Below are positions 2,507 through 35,310 of a DNA stretch of 64,000 nt, piece by piece (within the stretch, counting starts at the first letter, position 1; every line of letters begins with the position of its first letter). Under the pieces are notes generated by a model. It did not search any database. It was not told where the DNA came from and worked only from the letters and a program-made list of their open reading frames with translations. Position numbers and translations under genes: made by a program. The stretch is from Escherichia virus TH58, in sequence record MT446423.1; one strand, written 5' to 3'.

Positions 2507-3277
2507 ATGAAATGGATAAAAAGACGTTGTACTAAAATAAAAGATAAAGACGCATTTACATACTTAGTTAAGTTTTCTAATGGCGACATTTATATCGGTT
2601 ATAAAAAATTTAGAACAATTAAAAACAAGCCCACAAACTGGAAAACTTACACAACGTCATCTAAGTATATAAATGAACGCTTAAAAACTGATACACCTAC
2701 TAAATGGATAATTTTAAAAACATTTGATAGTTATAAAGACGCATTAAAACATGAAGAAGAGGTCATACGTAAATATTTTTATAACAAAAAATGTTTAAAT
2801 AAATCCATAGGCGGTAAAAAGTTTTATAAGCATCCGGATACTGAAGAACATATTCAAAAATTAAGAGATGCTCATAAGGGTAAAGTGTTATCCGAATCTC
2901 ATAAAAACAATATAAAATCTTCTGTAGCTGAATATTATGCTAAAAACGGAAGATCTAAGGAACATGTGCAAAATAATATCAATAGTCGAAAAAGTAAAAA
3001 ACAAGTATCGATAAAGCTTAAAAATAAAACTTTTAGAAGTTTTAAAAAAGCGGCGGAATATTTAAATTGCACTGAAAGTGAAGTCGAAACTCATCCTCTT
3101 GTTTTGAGTATTAAGACTACTATTCATAAAGTTCCTGAATATGTGGTTGTTGACGGTATTAAGTATACGTCTTATATAGAAGCAGCTAAAGCGCTAAATT
3201 TTCATCCTAGCACTATAAAAGAACGTTGCATATCTATGGACTATCCAAATTTTGTTGTTTCATATAAACGGGCATGA
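2507..3277 (+). CDS. intron-encoded GIY-YIG homing endonuclease (I-TevII-like)
   Basis: 256 aa within nrdD intron; N-terminal GIY-YIG-like segment (..DIYIGYKK..), repeated NUMOD3-like basic repeats, C-terminal helix-turn-helix (VVDGIKYTSYIEAAKALN). Confidence 0.8.
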   Translation: MKWIKRRCTKIKDKDAFTYLVKFSNGDIYIGYKKFRTIKNKPTNWKTYTTSSKYINERLKTDTPTKWIILKTFDSYKDALKHEEEVIRKYFYNKKCLNKSIGGKKFYKHPDTEEHIQKLRDAHKGKVLSESHKNNIKSSVAEYYAKNGRSKEHVQNNINSRKSKKQVSIKLKNKTFRSFKKAAEYLNCTESEVETHPLVLSIKTTIHKVPEYVVVDGIKYTSYIEAAKALNFHPSTIKERCISMDYPNFVVSYKRA

Positions 3278-17455: not shown

Positions 17456-20167
17456 ATGAAAGAATTTTACCTAACGGTTGAACAGATTGGTGATTCAATT
17501 TTTGAACGTTACATCGATTCTAATGGCTGTGAACGTACTCGTGAAGTAGAGTATAAGCCATCATTGTTTGCACATTGTCCTGAAAGTCAGGCCACGAAAT
17601 ATTTTGATATCTACGGTAAACCTTGTACTCGTAAACTGTTCGCTAACATGCGTGATGCCTCCCAATGGATTAAACGCATGGAAGATATCGGACTTGAAGC
17701 ACTTGGTATGGACGATTTCAAATTGGCGTATTTGTCTGACACTTATAACTATGAAATCAAATACGACCATACAAAAATTCGTGTGGCTAACTTCGACATC
17801 GAAGTAACATCTCCGGATGGGTTCCCTGAGCCGTCGCAAGCAAAACATCCGATTGATGCTATCACCCATTATGACTCAATTGACGACAGGTTCTACGTAT
17901 TTGATCTATTGAATTCTCCATATGGTAATGTGGAAGAATGGTCTATCGAAATTGCAGCTAAGCTTCAAGAACAAGGTGGTGATGAAGTTCCATCCGAAAT
18001 TATCGACAAAATCGTTTATATGCCGTTCGATAACGAAAAAGAATTGTTGATGGAATATCTCAACTTCTGGCAACAGAAAACTCCTGTCATTTTGACTGGA
18101 TGGAACGTTGAGTCATTTGATATTCCATATGTGTATAACCGAATCAAGAATATTTTTGGCGAATCTACTGCGAAACGTTTATCACCACATCGTAAAACTC
18201 GTGTTAAAGTTATCGAAAACATGTATGGTTCTCGTGAAATCATTACATTGTTCGGTATCTCTGTTCTTGATTACATTGACCTTTACAAAAAATTCTCTTT
18301 TACCAATCAACCGTCGTATTCTCTGGATTACATTTCAGAATTTGAATTGAACGTTGGTAAACTGAAATATGACGGCCCTATTTCTAAGCTTCGTGAAAGC
18401 AATCACCAACGATATATTTCTTATAACATTATCGACGTGTATCGTGTATTGCAAATTGATGCTAAGCGTCAGTTCATCAACTTGAGTTTGGACATGGGTT
18501 ATTATGCTAAGATACAGATTCAATCTGTGTTTAGTCCAATTAAAACATGGGATGCTATTATTTTTAATAGCCTTAAAGAGCAGAACAAGGTGATTCCACA
18601 AGGTCGTTCTCATCCGGTTCAACCTTATCCTGGCGCTTTTGTTAAGGAACCTATTCCAAATCGATACAAATATGTAATGAGTTTCGACCTTACATCTCTG
18701 TATCCAAGTATTATTCGCCAAGTGAATATTAGCCCAGAAACAATAGCAGGAACGTTTAAAGTAGCTCCATTGCATGATTATATTAACGCTGTTGCTGAAC
18801 GTCCTTCTGATGTGTACAGTTGTTCTCCTAACGGCATGATGTATTATAAAGACCGTGATGGTGTAGTTCCAACTGAAATCACTAAAGTCTTTAATCAACG
18901 TAAAGAACATAAAGGTTACATGCTTGCAGCTCAACGTAATGGTGAAATAATTAAAGAGGCATTGCATAATCCTAATCTTTCTGTCGACGAACCATTAGAT
19001 GTTGATTATCGTTTCGACTTCAGTGATGAGATTAAAGAAAAGATTAAAAAGTTGTCTGCTAAATCTCTTAATGAAATGTTGTTTAGAGCTCAACGTACTG
19101 AAGTTGCAGGTATGACTGCCCAAATTAACCGTAAATTGCTTATCAACTCACTTTATGGTGCACTTGGCAACGTTTGGTTCCGTTATTATGATTTGCGTAA
19201 TGCTACCGCAATCACAACATTTGGTCAAATGGCTTTACAGTGGATTGAACGTAAAGTTAATGAATATCTGAATGAAGTTTGTGGTACAGAAGGTGAAGCT
19301 TTCGTTCTATATGGTGATACAGACTCTATTTACGTATCTGCTGATAAAATTATCGATAAGGTTGGTGAATCTAAATTCCGTGATACCAACCATTGGGTAG
19401 ACTTCTTAGATAAGTTTGCACGTGAACGTATGGAACCAGCTATTGATAGAGGTTTCCGTGAAATGTGTGAATACATGAACAATAAACAACACTTAATGTT
19501 CATGGACCGAGAAGCTATCGCTGGTCCTCCGCTCGGTTCTAAAGGTATTGGTGGATTCTGGACTGGTAAGAAACGTTATGCATTAAACGTGTGGGACATG
19601 GAAGGTACTCGTTACGCTGAGCCTAAACTCAAAATAATGGGTCTAGAGACTCAGAAATCTTCGACTCCTAAAGCAGTACAGAAAGCTCTTAAAGAATGTA
19701 TTCGTCGTATGCTTCAAGAAGGTGAAGAATCATTACAAGAATATTTTAAAGAGTTTGAAAAAGAATTCCGTCAATTGAATTATATTAGCATCGCGTCGGT
19801 ATCTTCTGCGAATAACATTGCTAAATATGAAGTAGGTGGATTCCCGGGTCCTAAATGCCCGTTCCATATTCGTGGAATTCTGACGTATAACCGGGCTATC
19901 AAAGGTAATATCGATGCACCGCAAGTTGTAGAAGGTGAAAAAGTATATGTTCTGCCTTTACGTGAAGGAAACCCATTCGGTGATAAATGTATCGCATGGC
20001 CTTCTGGTACTGAAATCACAGATTTAATTAAAGACGACGTACTTCATTGGATGGACTACACTGTTCTCCTTGAGAAGACATTTATTAAACCACTTGAAGG
20101 ATTCACATCAGCAGCGAAACTCGATTACGAGAAGAAAGCATCTCTGTTCGATATGTTCGATTTTTGA
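17456..20167 (+). CDS. 43: DNA polymerase gp43 (family B)
   Basis: 903 aa; exonuclease motif FDIEV, polymerase motifs DLTSLYPSII and YGDTDSIYV; sequence matches RB69 gp43 as remembered. Confidence 0.97.
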   Translation: MKEFYLTVEQIGDSIFERYIDSNGCERTREVEYKPSLFAHCPESQATKYFDIYGKPCTRKLFANMRDASQWIKRMEDIGLEALGMDDFKLAYLSDTYNYEIKYDHTKIRVANFDIEVTSPDGFPEPSQAKHPIDAITHYDSIDDRFYVFDLLNSPYGNVEEWSIEIAAKLQEQGGDEVPSEIIDKIVYMPFDNEKELLMEYLNFWQQKTPVILTGWNVESFDIPYVYNRIKNIFGESTAKRLSPHRKTRVKVIENMYGSREIITLFGISVLDYIDLYKKFSFTNQPSYSLDYISEFELNVGKLKYDGPISKLRESNHQRYISYNIIDVYRVLQIDAKRQFINLSLDMGYYAKIQIQSVFSPIKTWDAIIFNSLKEQNKVIPQGRSHPVQPYPGAFVKEPIPNRYKYVMSFDLTSLYPSIIRQVNISPETIAGTFKVAPLHDYINAVAERPSDVYSCSPNGMMYYKDRDGVVPTEITKVFNQRKEHKGYMLAAQRNGEIIKEALHNPNLSVDEPLDVDYRFDFSDEIKEKIKKLSAKSLNEMLFRAQRTEVAGMTAQINRKLLINSLYGALGNVWFRYYDLRNATAITTFGQMALQWIERKVNEYLNEVCGTEGEAFVLYGDTDSIYVSADKIIDKVGESKFRDTNHWVDFLDKFARERMEPAIDRGFREMCEYMNNKQHLMFMDREAIAGPPLGSKGIGGFWTGKKRYALNVWDMEGTRYAEPKLKIMGLETQKSSTPKAVQKALKECIRRMLQEGEESLQEYFKEFEKEFRQLNYISIASVSSANNIAKYEVGGFPGPKCPFHIRGILTYNRAIKGNIDAPQVVEGEKVYVLPLREGNPFGDKCIAWPSGTEITDLIKDDVLHWMDYTVLLEKTFIKPLEGFTSAAKLDYEKKASLFDMFDF

Positions 20168-33094: not shown

Positions 33095-34117
33095 ATGGCT
33101 GAATGGATAGATAATGAATTTGCTTATCGTGCGTTTTCTCACCTACCTCGTTTTAGACAAATCAATAATTCAAGCACATTTAAATTAACATTTCGATGCC
33201 CAGTTTGTGGCGACTCCCAGACAGATGCAATGAAAGCTCGCGGATGGTATTATGGCGGTACTCCAGGTAATGTGCATTGCTATAACTGTCAATATCATAA
33301 TACGATTTCCGGATACTTAAAAGAGTATGACGAAGAGCTTTATCGTGAATATCTAATGGAAGTTCGTAAAGAAAAAGCTAGAATGGAACCAAAGATTGAA
33401 AAGGTTCCTGAACATAAACCAGAACCGGAGAAAAAGACTATAAATTCTTTGCCGTCTTGTTCTCGTCTGGACAAGTTGCCTGAAGAGCATCCTATTGTGA
33501 AATATGTTAAGTCTCGGTGTATTCCTAAAGAATCATGGAACAGATTATGGTTCACATTAGAATGGCCTAAATTGGTCAACAAGATTCAACCAGGCACGTA
33601 TAAGAAAGAGATTCCAGAACCGCGTTTAGTGATTCCTATTTTTAATAAAGACGGGAAGGCTGAGTCATTTCAAGGACGTGCACTTCGCAAAGATGCTCCT
33701 CAGAAATATATCACTATTAAAGCGTTTGAGTCTGCAACAAAAATTTATGGTGTTGAACGTGTTAAGGAAGGAGACGTCTGGGTAATGGAAGGCCCTATTG
33801 ATAGTTTATTCATACCCAATGCAATCGCTATTACAGGCGGCTCAATAGATTTAGATGTGGTACCATTTAAAGAACGTCGGGTATGGGTGATGGATAATGA
33901 ACCTAGGCATCCGGATACTATAGCTCGTATGAAGCGATTAGTAGATGCAGGCGAACGTGTTATGTTCTGGGATAGAGCTCCATGGAGTTCAAAGGATGTG
34001 AATGATATGGTAATGAAAGAAAATGCAACACCACAAGAAATTTTAGAATATATGAAACAGAATATTTCAAGTGGGTTGCATGCTAAAATGAGATTATCTC
34101 GTTATTCGAAGATTTAA
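33095..34117 (+). CDS. 61: DNA primase gp61
   Basis: 340 aa; N-terminal zinc ribbon CPVCGDS..CYNC; WIDNEFAYRAF..NNSSTFKL start matches T4 primase as remembered. Confidence 0.92.
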   Translation: MAEWIDNEFAYRAFSHLPRFRQINNSSTFKLTFRCPVCGDSQTDAMKARGWYYGGTPGNVHCYNCQYHNTISGYLKEYDEELYREYLMEVRKEKARMEPKIEKVPEHKPEPEKKTINSLPSCSRLDKLPEEHPIVKYVKSRCIPKESWNRLWFTLEWPKLVNKIQPGTYKKEIPEPRLVIPIFNKDGKAESFQGRALRKDAPQKYITIKAFESATKIYGVERVKEGDVWVMEGPIDSLFIPNAIAITGGSIDLDVVPFKERRVWVMDNEPRHPDTIARMKRLVDAGERVMFWDRAPWSSKDVNDMVMKENATPQEILEYMKQNISSGLHAKMRLSRYSKI

Positions 34118-34311
34118 ACAAGCCCTATAATAGCAAAGGCCAAATCAACTACAGTATCCAAAGGAACAGAAGGAACCATAACACCATGGGCAACTAACAA
34201 TGGTGCAATCCCGAAGTTCCATGAAATAATGCCACCTACAACTATTGCAGCGATAGCAGTTTTCTTTTTATTGCCTTTAATAGCGTTGATTAACGATGGA
34301 AGTTTAAACAT
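34114..34311 (-). CDS. small membrane protein on the opposite strand (65 aa)
   Basis: Track ORF; AAGGAG SD 5 nt upstream of ATG on - strand; hydrophobic TM-rich sequence; convergent with gene 61. Confidence 0.5.
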   Translation of the reverse strand: MFKLPSLINAIKGNKKKTAIAAIVVGGIISWNFGIAPLLVAHGVMVPSVPLDTVVDLAFAIIGLV

Positions 34312-34401
34312 AATATCTCCTTAGTTACCTTATTATTTATTACGCTTTATAAAATTAATGTTAGAATTAACTTCTCTTATACTGAATTGAAAGGAAAAAT
34401 A

Positions 34402-34923
34402 ATGGCGCACTTTAATGAATGTTCACAACTTATTTCTGGTGTTGATAAAGCAGAAGAAGCTTATTTTAATGCTCTGATTCACGAAGATAAAGACCCACTT
34501 CAGGTAATGCTTGATATGCAGAAATCTTTACAGGTTCGTCTGGCAAATGACAAGCCTGATCATAACAAACATCCTGATGAATTGGCCACTGCCGGCGATG
34601 TTGTTGATTGGTTGCGTAATCAGAAAGATTATATTGATGATGAATTCCGTGAACTGCTGACTTCACTTGGTGGTATGTCCAACGGTGAAAAAGCCGCTAG
34701 CTCTGTATGGAAGCCATGGAAAGCACAACATGCTGAATATCGAAATCGTCGTATCGATGAACTGTCTCCTGAAGACCAGCTTGAAATTAAATTCGAGATG
34801 ATTGATATCCTCCACTTTGTTCTGAATATGTTCCAAGGTCTGGGACTTTCCGCTGAAGAAATCTTTAAACTGTATTACTTGAAGAATGCTGAAAACTTCG
34901 CTCGCCAAAACCGAGGTTACTAA
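34402..34923 (+). CDS. 56: dCTP pyrophosphatase gp56 (MazG-like)
   Basis: Start refined to MAHFNEC; 173 aa; matches T4 gp56 as remembered. Confidence 0.9.
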   Translation: MAHFNECSQLISGVDKAEEAYFNALIHEDKDPLQVMLDMQKSLQVRLANDKPDHNKHPDELATAGDVVDWLRNQKDYIDDEFRELLTSLGGMSNGEKAASSVWKPWKAQHAEYRNRRIDELSPEDQLEIKFEMIDILHFVLNMFQGLGLSAEEIFKLYYLKNAENFARQNRGY

Positions 34924-35096: not shown

Positions 35097-35310
35097 TTTT
35101 TATGCATGGCAAAAAGCCGGGAGACCGGCTAATAAAGCATTCGGCTCTGATGGATATAGTACTAGACTCCACTGGAAATTTAATACTCCGGATGATTATT
35201 CTCCGGTAATAATTAACGGTGATGTTGTTATATTAGCTAAATTCGGATATTTTATTGTCCCGAAGAAATTTATTATAAATACACCTGTAATTAAACAACA
35301 AAGGAGTTAA
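35086..35310 (+). CDS. hypothetical protein (74 aa)
   Basis: Internal ATG (MKLDFYAWQKAG) of track ORF 34972-35310; contains the soc late promoter near its 3' end. Confidence 0.35.
   Translation: MKLDFYAWQKAGRPANKAFGSDGYSTRLHWKFNTPDDYSPVIINGDVVILAKFGYFIVPKKFIINTPVIKQQRS
35274..35281 (+). promoter_or_regulatory. late promoter TATAAATA for soc
   Basis: Exact TATAAATA about 32 nt upstream of soc ATG, followed by AAGGAG SD. Confidence 0.55.

Follow-up and report, generated by a model that had tools for sequence, protein, structure and literature searches.

Between the DNA primase gene 61 and the dCTPase gene 56 of T-even phages, an otherwise unidirectional block of early genes is interrupted by a short open reading frame (ORF) on the opposite strand. 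This raises the question of whether the ORF is a genuine gene and, if so, why it is turned against its neighbours and what its product might do. The locus was analyzed in Escherichia virus TH58 (MT446423.1), using a stretch of 64,000 nucleotides, hereafter the window, which belongs to a genome of the Mosigvirus (RB69-like) class. The reading put forward here, which we regard as likely, is that the ORF is the Mosigvirus copy of a Tevenvirinae accessory gene encoding a late, inner-membrane protein of 65 aa, a presumed envelope modulator.

The locus and its neighbours

The preliminary description had reported a hydrophobic ORF of 65 aa on the minus strand between genes 61 and 56, preceded by a strong AAGGAG Shine-Dalgarno (SD) sequence and converging with gene 61 in such a way that the 3' ends share four nucleotides. 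All of these elements were recovered at the expected sites (Table 1). The stop codon of the small ORF occupies positions 34116-34114 of the minus strand and shares the four nucleotides TTAA with the TAA of gene 61. The locus is 98.7% identical to that of Shigella phage phi25-307. In the annotation of this phage the small ORF is the sole reverse-strand gene among 45 genes over 24 kb, in agreement with the earlier remark that reverse genes are rare in the region. The identity of gene 56 agrees with the annotations in close relatives.

Table 1. Features in and around the interval between genes 61 and 56 of Escherichia virus TH58 (positions in the window)
Feature	Position	Strand	Basis and remarks
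Gene 61, DNA primase gp61, 340-aa ORF, convergent with the small ORF	33095..34117	+	PHROG 47, E 3.8e-102
Stop-stop overlap TTAA of gene 61 and the small ORF	34114..34117	.	4 nt; sequence
Predicted small membrane protein, coding sequence	34114..34311	-	ATG start, 65 aa, MFKLPSLINAIKGNKKKTAIAAIVVGGIISWNFGIAPLLVAHGVMVPSVPLDTVVDLAFAIIGLV
Predicted Gly/Pro turn HGVMVPSVP, then hydrophobic C-terminal helix LDTVVDLAFAII, codons 42-62	34126..34188	-	AlphaFold2, conservation, hydropathy
Predicted transmembrane helix, codons 18-41, with W31-N32 and P37	34189..34260	-	AlphaFold2 helix 15-41 (pLDDT 84-87); Nolan 2006, 21-41
Lys-rich N-terminal segment, codons 1-17, with predicted amphipathic helix 3-11	34261..34311	-	AlphaFold2, charge count
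Shine-Dalgarno AAGGAG	34317..34322	-	Sequence; 5 nt upstream of ATG
Candidate T4-type late promoter element AATAAATA (positions -13 to -6)	34334..34341	-	Sequence, conservation; 22 nt before ATG
Candidate MotA-type middle promoter of gene 56: CGCTTTA (MotA-box-like), 12 nt, TAGAAT	34343..34367	+	Sequence
Gene 56, dCTPase / NTP pyrophosphohydrolase gp56, divergent from the small ORF	34402..34923	+	PHROG 173, E 3.4e-45

A protein-coding gene shared by the Tevenvirinae

The product of the small ORF matches PHROG 2024 over its entire length (hmmscan E 2.6e-27, residues 1-65 versus profile positions 1-65). A tblastn search with this ORF was positive for 692 phage records, in 685 of which at least 80% of the query was covered. 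The RB69 ortholog is close, and the orthologs of Tequatrovirus, including T4, are about 55% identical. Searches with distant alleles yielded 140 and 165 further records, including Moon-, Jiaoda- and Karamvirus-type phages, and the gene is present in about 1000 phage records spread over the Tevenvirinae genera. Distant homologs occupy the same convergent, 4-nt-overlapping site in Dhakavirus MN04, Marfavirus MY02 and Gelderlandvirus S16. These three all match PHROG 2024 (E 1e-24 to 1e-28), and the distant homologs align in register with the family (hhalign probability 96.9%, E 1.9e-10).

All loci inspected have the small ORF in the interval between genes 61 and 56, on the strand opposite to theirs and converging with gene 61. 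The identical overlap of four nucleotides is annotated in phage 55, T4, RB51, RB69, MN04, MY02 and S16. In T4, dam is inserted between the ortholog and gene 56, the position being otherwise kept. It is conserved in Gaprivervirus CJ20 as well, and in Yersinia phage P8 an intact small ORF is parted from gene 61 by a gene for a homing endonuclease. At the site equivalent to the SD sequence, AGGAG or AGGAGG occurs in T4, RB51, RB69, P8, CJ20, MN04, MY02 and S16, six of these eight phages having the extended form AAGGAG or AAGGAGG. The close relatives, to which the preliminary description had referred, thus contain an ORF that is neither absent nor disrupted; it is intact in almost all Tevenvirinae examined.

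Outside the Tevenvirinae the ORF is missing from the inspected loci of Krischvirus, Slopekvirus, Pseudotevenvirus and Lazarusvirus. In these four genera the next plus-strand gene follows directly on gene 61; for Krischvirus, Slopekvirus and Pseudotevenvirus this next gene is annotated as gene 56 or its equivalent. Kagamiyamavirus EcS1 has a plus-strand ORF in place of the small ORF. An exhaustive profile search among 1.84 billion protein representatives gave five matches, all of them T-even, and a word-indexed protein search with the product of the small ORF returned close relatives only. One apparently divergent profile match, P0040, turned out to be an artefact, as its source is C-to-T-converted (bisulfite-type) T4 DNA with contigs containing 0% C. 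Co-occurrence of the small ORF with soc, sp or rI was also considered and discarded because the pattern merely tracks the phylogeny of the Tevenvirinae.

The lineages diverge in the manner of a coding sequence. Between them, dN/dS ratios (Nei-Gojobori) range from 0.05 to 0.4. Relative to T4, the differences at codon positions 1, 2 and 3 number 29, 12 and 40, the second position being the most conserved one. In two variants 3-aa in-frame deletions were found, so that in-frame indels are tolerated. The low dN/dS ratios and the coding-type substitution pattern show that it is under purifying selection, and the comparison of sequences establishes the small ORF as a real protein-coding gene. Together with the PHROG match, this upholds the earlier proposal that the ORF is a gene and not spurious. 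It is barely conceivable that genes 61 and 56 are separated by a non-coding spacer in which the ORF arose by chance or by mis-annotation. Such an origin would fit its short length, the frame on the opposite strand, which is also free of stop codons in four of the nine lineages compared, and the empty T4 reference annotation. However, amino acid identity across genera amounts to 45-55% although synonymous sites are saturated, no frame other than the sense frame is open in all nine lineages, and the SD sequence and the ATG are conserved. Moreover, the abutting genes of Krisch-, Slopek-, Pseudoteven- and Lazarusvirus, which are devoid of the ORF, indicate that no spacer is needed at this site. 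A chance origin is effectively refuted by these comparative data.

The family to which the ORF belongs as a typical member is known and widely annotated, and the existence of the gene is not new. Its orthologs are listed as RB69ORF029w in RB69, as RB32ORF030w in RB51 and RB14 and as 'putative transmembrane protein' in phage 55, and the T4 ortholog bears the UniRef name 'Uncharacterized protein dam.1'. Family, size, the 4-nt overlap with gene 61, the SD sequence and an upstream ATAAATA are common to RB69ORF029w, RB32ORF030w, T4 dam.1 and the TH58 ORF, and nothing essential distinguishes the latter. Since the RB69 and RB32 genomes the family has been annotated as hypothetical protein, and hundreds of genomes carry the annotation. 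The names 'Holin', 'DNA packaging ATPase' and 'dCTP pyrophosphatase', given to some orthologs with no stated evidence, were taken as mis-annotations. In the searchable literature, neither a main-text mention of the ORF029w, ORF030w, dam.1 or PHROG 2024 gene nor data on its transcription, translation or membrane localisation were found. Published items encountered on the locus are limited to a transmembrane prediction for RB69ORF029w and the prediction of a middle promoter for gene 56. No gene is annotated between dam and 61 in NC_000866.4, the T4 reference record, and for this reason the gene probably escaped screens designed on annotated coding sequences. The CRISPRi-ART screen of T4, whose targets were annotated coding sequences only, probably missed it.

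Candidate promoters upstream of the small gene and its orientation

The 90-bp intergenic region upstream of the small ORF holds two candidate promoters back to back, a late one on the minus strand and a middle one on the plus strand (Table 1). At the position equivalent to the latter, a middle promoter (Pm:16038, score 21.6) was predicted in RB69 (Nolan et al. 2006, PMC1524935). The late element AATAAATA (34341-34334) would place the transcript start of the small gene near 34328 and give rise to a leader of about 17 nt carrying the strong SD sequence. In eight of the nine lineages, the related motif NATAAATA with the core ATAAATA precedes the ATG by 16-22 nt, within flanks that have diverged. 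Besides the TH58 window, this core is shared by RB69, T4, RB51, P8, CJ20, MN04 and MY02. The MY02 ortholog is preceded by a perfect TATAAATA, and in S16 only TTAAATA is present. The first base of the element (-13) is a T in MY02 alone; it is a G in T4 and a C in P8 and CJ20. Because of this non-T base in all phages except MY02, and of the reduced motif of S16, the late promoter, if active, may be weak. Nolan et al. (2006, PMC1524935) reported that relatives show little conservation of the T at -13 in the late consensus of T4, A or T being common at this position in most of the five T4-like phages analysed, including RB69; at their HMM threshold, no late promoter was listed for RB69ORF029w.

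The distribution of WATAAATA in the window is informative in this respect. There are seven copies, compared to 18 +/- 4.4 expected, and each of 100 shuffled sequences contained at least seven. Six of the seven copies are located 20-31 nt upstream of an SD sequence and an ATG on the same strand, among them that of soc. Since the motif is depleted and nearly all copies precede a gene start, the sequence argues that WATAAATA is under selection in the window and marks gene starts. A close analogue is the known late gene soc, which is found at a distance of about 1 kb and has its TATAAATA at 35274-35281. Like soc and other late genes embedded in early or middle regions, the small gene is short, lies inside an early/middle block and has its own WATAAATA 20-31 nt before SD and ATG. 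On the other hand, soc shares the orientation of the early genes and its product is a soluble protein that decorates the capsid, whereas the small gene lies on the opposite strand and its product is predicted to be a membrane protein.

A scan for sigma-70-like promoters on the minus strand upstream of the small ORF did not reveal any candidate, and an Rfam scan of the region matched no RNA family. From the late-type element it is strongly inferred that the small gene is most likely expressed late from its own gp55-type promoter. Late genes of T4-type phages are mostly found on the same strand as the small ORF. Its reverse orientation can hence be explained by an own late-type promoter together with the strand preference of late genes, and would be normal for a late gene inside an early/middle transcription unit.

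On the minus strand, a terminator scan between the convergent genes detected none after the small ORF. A late transcript should hence continue into gene 61 in antisense orientation. This opens the possibility that the main function of the locus resides in the RNA, the antisense transcript reaching gene 61 and upstream early genes and contributing to their shut-off, with the peptide being secondary. We consider this quite improbable. It is true that the small ORF ends within the stop codon of gene 61, so that a late transcript must enter this gene, and that the late promoter element is the most conserved non-coding feature. However, the dN/dS ratios well below 1, the conserved SD sequence, the invariant residues W, N, P, G and P and the in-frame indels all indicate a constraint at the protein level. 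In P8, moreover, the ORF is intact although it does not adjoin gene 61, a homing endonuclease gene being situated between them. An RNA role and a protein role would in any case be compatible with each other.

Predicted topology, possible function and dispensability

The description as a small membrane protein, made at the outset, holds up in the predictions. The maximum of the Kyte-Doolittle hydropathy in a window of 19 residues is 1.93 (residues 22-40), and the hydrophobic character extends over all of residues 18-65. An AlphaFold2 model built from an alignment of 11 sequences (mean pLDDT 79) comprises helices 3-11, 15-41 and 51-62 and a loop at 42-50. Its long helix covers the transmembrane segment 21-41 which Nolan et al. 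(2006, PMC1524935) listed for RB69ORF029w in their supplementary table (Additional file 2), where the protein is given without signal peptide (SignalP negative). Members of the family are hydrophobic proteins of 61-69 aa with a conserved W-N, P, G and P. The residues W31, N32, P37, G43 and P47 are invariant across all aligned lineages, including the homologs of Dhaka-, Marfa- and Gelderlandvirus, and K3, K12, G13 and K16 are invariant among 13 orthologs.

The net charge of the TH58 protein is +5 over residues 1-21 and -2 in the C-terminal part. According to the positive-inside rule, the N-terminus is predicted to be cytoplasmic (N-in). The product would thus be an inner-membrane protein whose Lys-rich N-terminus faces the cytoplasm and which has a single transmembrane helix, in which a Trp-Asn pair would come to lie in the middle of the membrane along with a Pro. 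A Gly/Pro turn on the periplasmic side would then lead into the short hydrophobic C-terminal helix. The latter comprises 12 residues (51-62), or 15 when counted from L51 to the C-terminus. A complete membrane crossing would require more residues than helix 51-62 offers, and the helix probably returns into the periplasmic (outer) leaflet.

A different fate of the C-terminus is conceivable, namely that the first part of the protein serves as a long signal peptide that is cleaved after residue 41 and releases a hydrophobic peptide of 24 residues (HGVMVPSVPLDTVVDLAFAIIGLV) to the periplasm or the outer leaflet. An AxA-like motif precedes G43 in several phages (AIA|HG in T4, ALA|HG in P8, ALA|YG in S16, AAS|QG in MN04), and the C-terminal 24 residues are the most conserved part of the protein. 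Yet this processing is very improbable since position -3 is taken by a large residue in the TH58 protein (LVA|HG), the n-region and h-region would together span 41 aa, far more than in a typical Sec signal peptide, and the SignalP result for RB69ORF029w was negative (Nolan et al. 2006, PMC1524935).

For the uncleaved membrane protein, database comparisons did not point to a known function. Thirteen members of the family were compared with Pfam at E values up to 10 and matched no family. Searches of NCBIfam, of sequence profiles from the PDB and, with Foldseek, of PDB structures gave chance matches only and no family or fold of known function, and in a Foldseek search of BFVD only the protein's own orthologs passed E 0.001. 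A type I toxin profile (Ldr_toxin) was hit by one of the 13 members at E 0.1, which is not significant. An Asn residue in the middle of the membrane is a classic driver of helix-helix association. The buried Asn, together with the conserved turn and C-terminal helix, suggests, with low confidence, that the protein may act by associating with itself or with another membrane protein. It is probably not an enzyme, albeit this is again said with low confidence. Our guess, to be taken with the same reserve, is that the gene encodes a non-essential late envelope modulator that might affect, for instance, lysis timing, lysis inhibition or membrane integrity.

Small accessory proteins of the envelope are also encoded by the same phages, namely Imm, Sp and Ac of T4. 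The first two function in the exclusion of superinfecting phages, and Ac confers sensitivity to acriflavine. The genes imm and sp are located 2-3 kb upstream in annotated relatives, on the early strand and within the early-gene block. The small ORF differs from imm, sp and ac in having a late-type promoter only, and its product shares no sequence similarity with theirs.

Some information on the importance of the gene comes from deposited genomes. In that of T4_583L, a 2-nt deletion shifts the frame of the ortholog at about codon 22 and a further deletion of 4 nt lies between its SD sequence and ATG. Phage a48 carries a 1-nt frameshift in the ortholog. T4_583L is a viable, genome-reduced T4 obtained by CiPGr whose burst size was 109, compared to 120 of the wild type (PMC9825161). 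The indels of both phages could be sequencing errors. Taken at face value, they mean that the gene appears to be dispensable in the laboratory, because T4_583L is viable with a frameshifted ortholog.

The same strain bears on the idea that the protein is a minor holin or a pinholin-like pore former that permeabilises the membrane at the end of infection. Holins, pinholins and antiholins such as T4 RI resemble the small gene in size, in the late-type promoter and in possessing one or two hydrophobic helices and a turn. The 65 aa, the late-type element and the hydrophobic helix-turn-helix of the TH58 protein would suit such a function, and the ortholog of vB_EcoM_OE5505 is even called 'Holin' in UniRef and BFVD. 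Nevertheless, a pore former is improbable here. The label is given with no stated evidence, and none of the 13 members matched a Pfam or NCBIfam holin family even at E values up to 10. Holins typically have a charged C-terminal tail. By contrast, the charged domain of the small protein is N-terminal and its C-terminus is hydrophobic (…DLAFAIIGLV), and neither sequence nor profile similarity to proteins of the lysis pathway was found. Unlike the genes of this pathway, the small gene does not adjoin any lysis gene. T-even phages already use the holin T and the antiholins RI and RIII, and the T4 strain with the frameshifted ortholog still lyses with a near-normal burst.

Returning to the late accessory membrane protein, a more far-reaching version is that it constitutes an overlooked part, located in the inner membrane, of the envelope or lysis programme of T-even phages, near-universal in the Tevenvirinae, which modulates, e.g., holin T, lysis inhibition or membrane energisation. 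This proposal must be regarded as doubtful. T4 lysis and lysis inhibition are classic systems, and an unstudied conserved late membrane protein would be a cheap target for knockout and tagging. A near-universal T-even gene under purifying selection, apparently late and membrane-targeted, is easily overlooked genome-wide when it is missing from NC_000866.4. If the gene should prove to be without phenotype, it would be one more accessory gene.

Promoter-like elements next to the reverse ORF

The late-promoter octamer WATAAATA, one copy of which forms the candidate late-promoter element of the small reverse ORF, is strongly under-represented in the whole 64-kb window, where 7 copies were observed compared to 18 +/- 4.4 expected from dinucleotide shuffles. 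Six of these seven copies are placed 20-31 nt 5' of a Shine-Dalgarno sequence plus ATG on the same strand. Scarcity and placement of the motif would fit a genome in which spurious late promoters are selected against. A MotA-box-like/TAGAAT element facing gene 56 stands back to back with the candidate late-promoter element of the small ORF, and its counterpart in RB69 is the predicted middle promoter Pm:16038 (Nolan 2006, PMC1524935).

Positions of motifs and ORFs in the window and in related phages
Feature	Record	Position	Strand	Basis or remark
WATAAATA	window	1214, 2470, 34334, 35274, 58690, 62507, 63027		motif scan
MotA-box-like CGCTTTA, 12 nt, then TAGAAT	window	34343-34367	+	sequence; upstream of gene 56
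31-aa ORF	window	34229..34324	+	ORF list; antisense to the small ORF
99-aa ORF	EcS1	2523-2822	+	replaces the reverse ORF 3' of gene 61
Small-ORF ortholog	MY02 (Klebsiella phage)	2511-2711

The antisense frame and the locus in other genera

The + strand frame antisense to the small ORF (window positions 34117-34311) is open throughout in the copies of Mosigvirus and Tequatrovirus, but it is broken by stops in five other lineages. Due to these interruptions, the 31-aa ORF on the + strand is most likely a side effect of the codons that make up the hydrophobic small ORF.

At the locus examined in Escherichia phage EcS1 (Kagamiyamavirus), the reverse ORF is absent downstream of gene 61. The gene order is gene 61, a 99-aa ORF on the + strand and then a normal gene 56. 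The 99-aa ORF matches the NTP-pyrophosphohydrolase family phrog_4856 (E 2.4e-37) and appears to be either a partial copy or a second gene of the pyrophosphohydrolase type. Within Gaprivervirus, the alleles at the small-ORF locus differ, that of CJ20 being P8-like and that of VR7 Dhakavirus-like (the latter by tblastn), and in SP18 tblastn matches fall in two places. The differing alleles and the two SP18 matches suggest that allele exchange or duplication may have taken place at this site.

Apparently disrupted, converted and misnamed orthologs

The ortholog of the viable, genome-reduced T4_583L (MZ375356.1) carries, within 1185-1260, a 2-nt frameshift as well as a 4-nt deletion between the Shine-Dalgarno sequence and the ATG, and that of phage a48 a 1-nt deletion within an A-run at about 1150. 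The indels could be genuine loss-of-function alleles, or they could stem from errors in sequencing.

T4 sequence with 0% cytosine was found in contigs of the Logan assemblies SRR27475519, SRR27475520, SRR24798469 and SRR24798472, and in the small-ORF ortholog 26/26 differences to T4 were C-to-T. Taken together, this suggests that T4 DNA converted by bisulfite or enzymatically was assembled as if native. P0040, a profile-search match in protein databases, is thus a false divergent homolog produced by these contigs.

In the T4 reference NC_000866.4, no feature is annotated in the 309 bp that separate dam from gene 61 (17626-17934, record coordinates), even though this gap harbors an intact ortholog of 66 aa, dam.1. 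This ortholog is annotated in newer T4 records and also in RB51 and RB14. Databases name orthologs 'DNA packaging ATPase' (MY02, VAC36), 'dCTP pyrophosphatase' (UniRef entry for IME341) and 'Holin' (OE5505), in each case with no evidence stated. All three labels are unverified, and neither of the two enzyme names is plausible for a hydrophobic protein of 66 aa.
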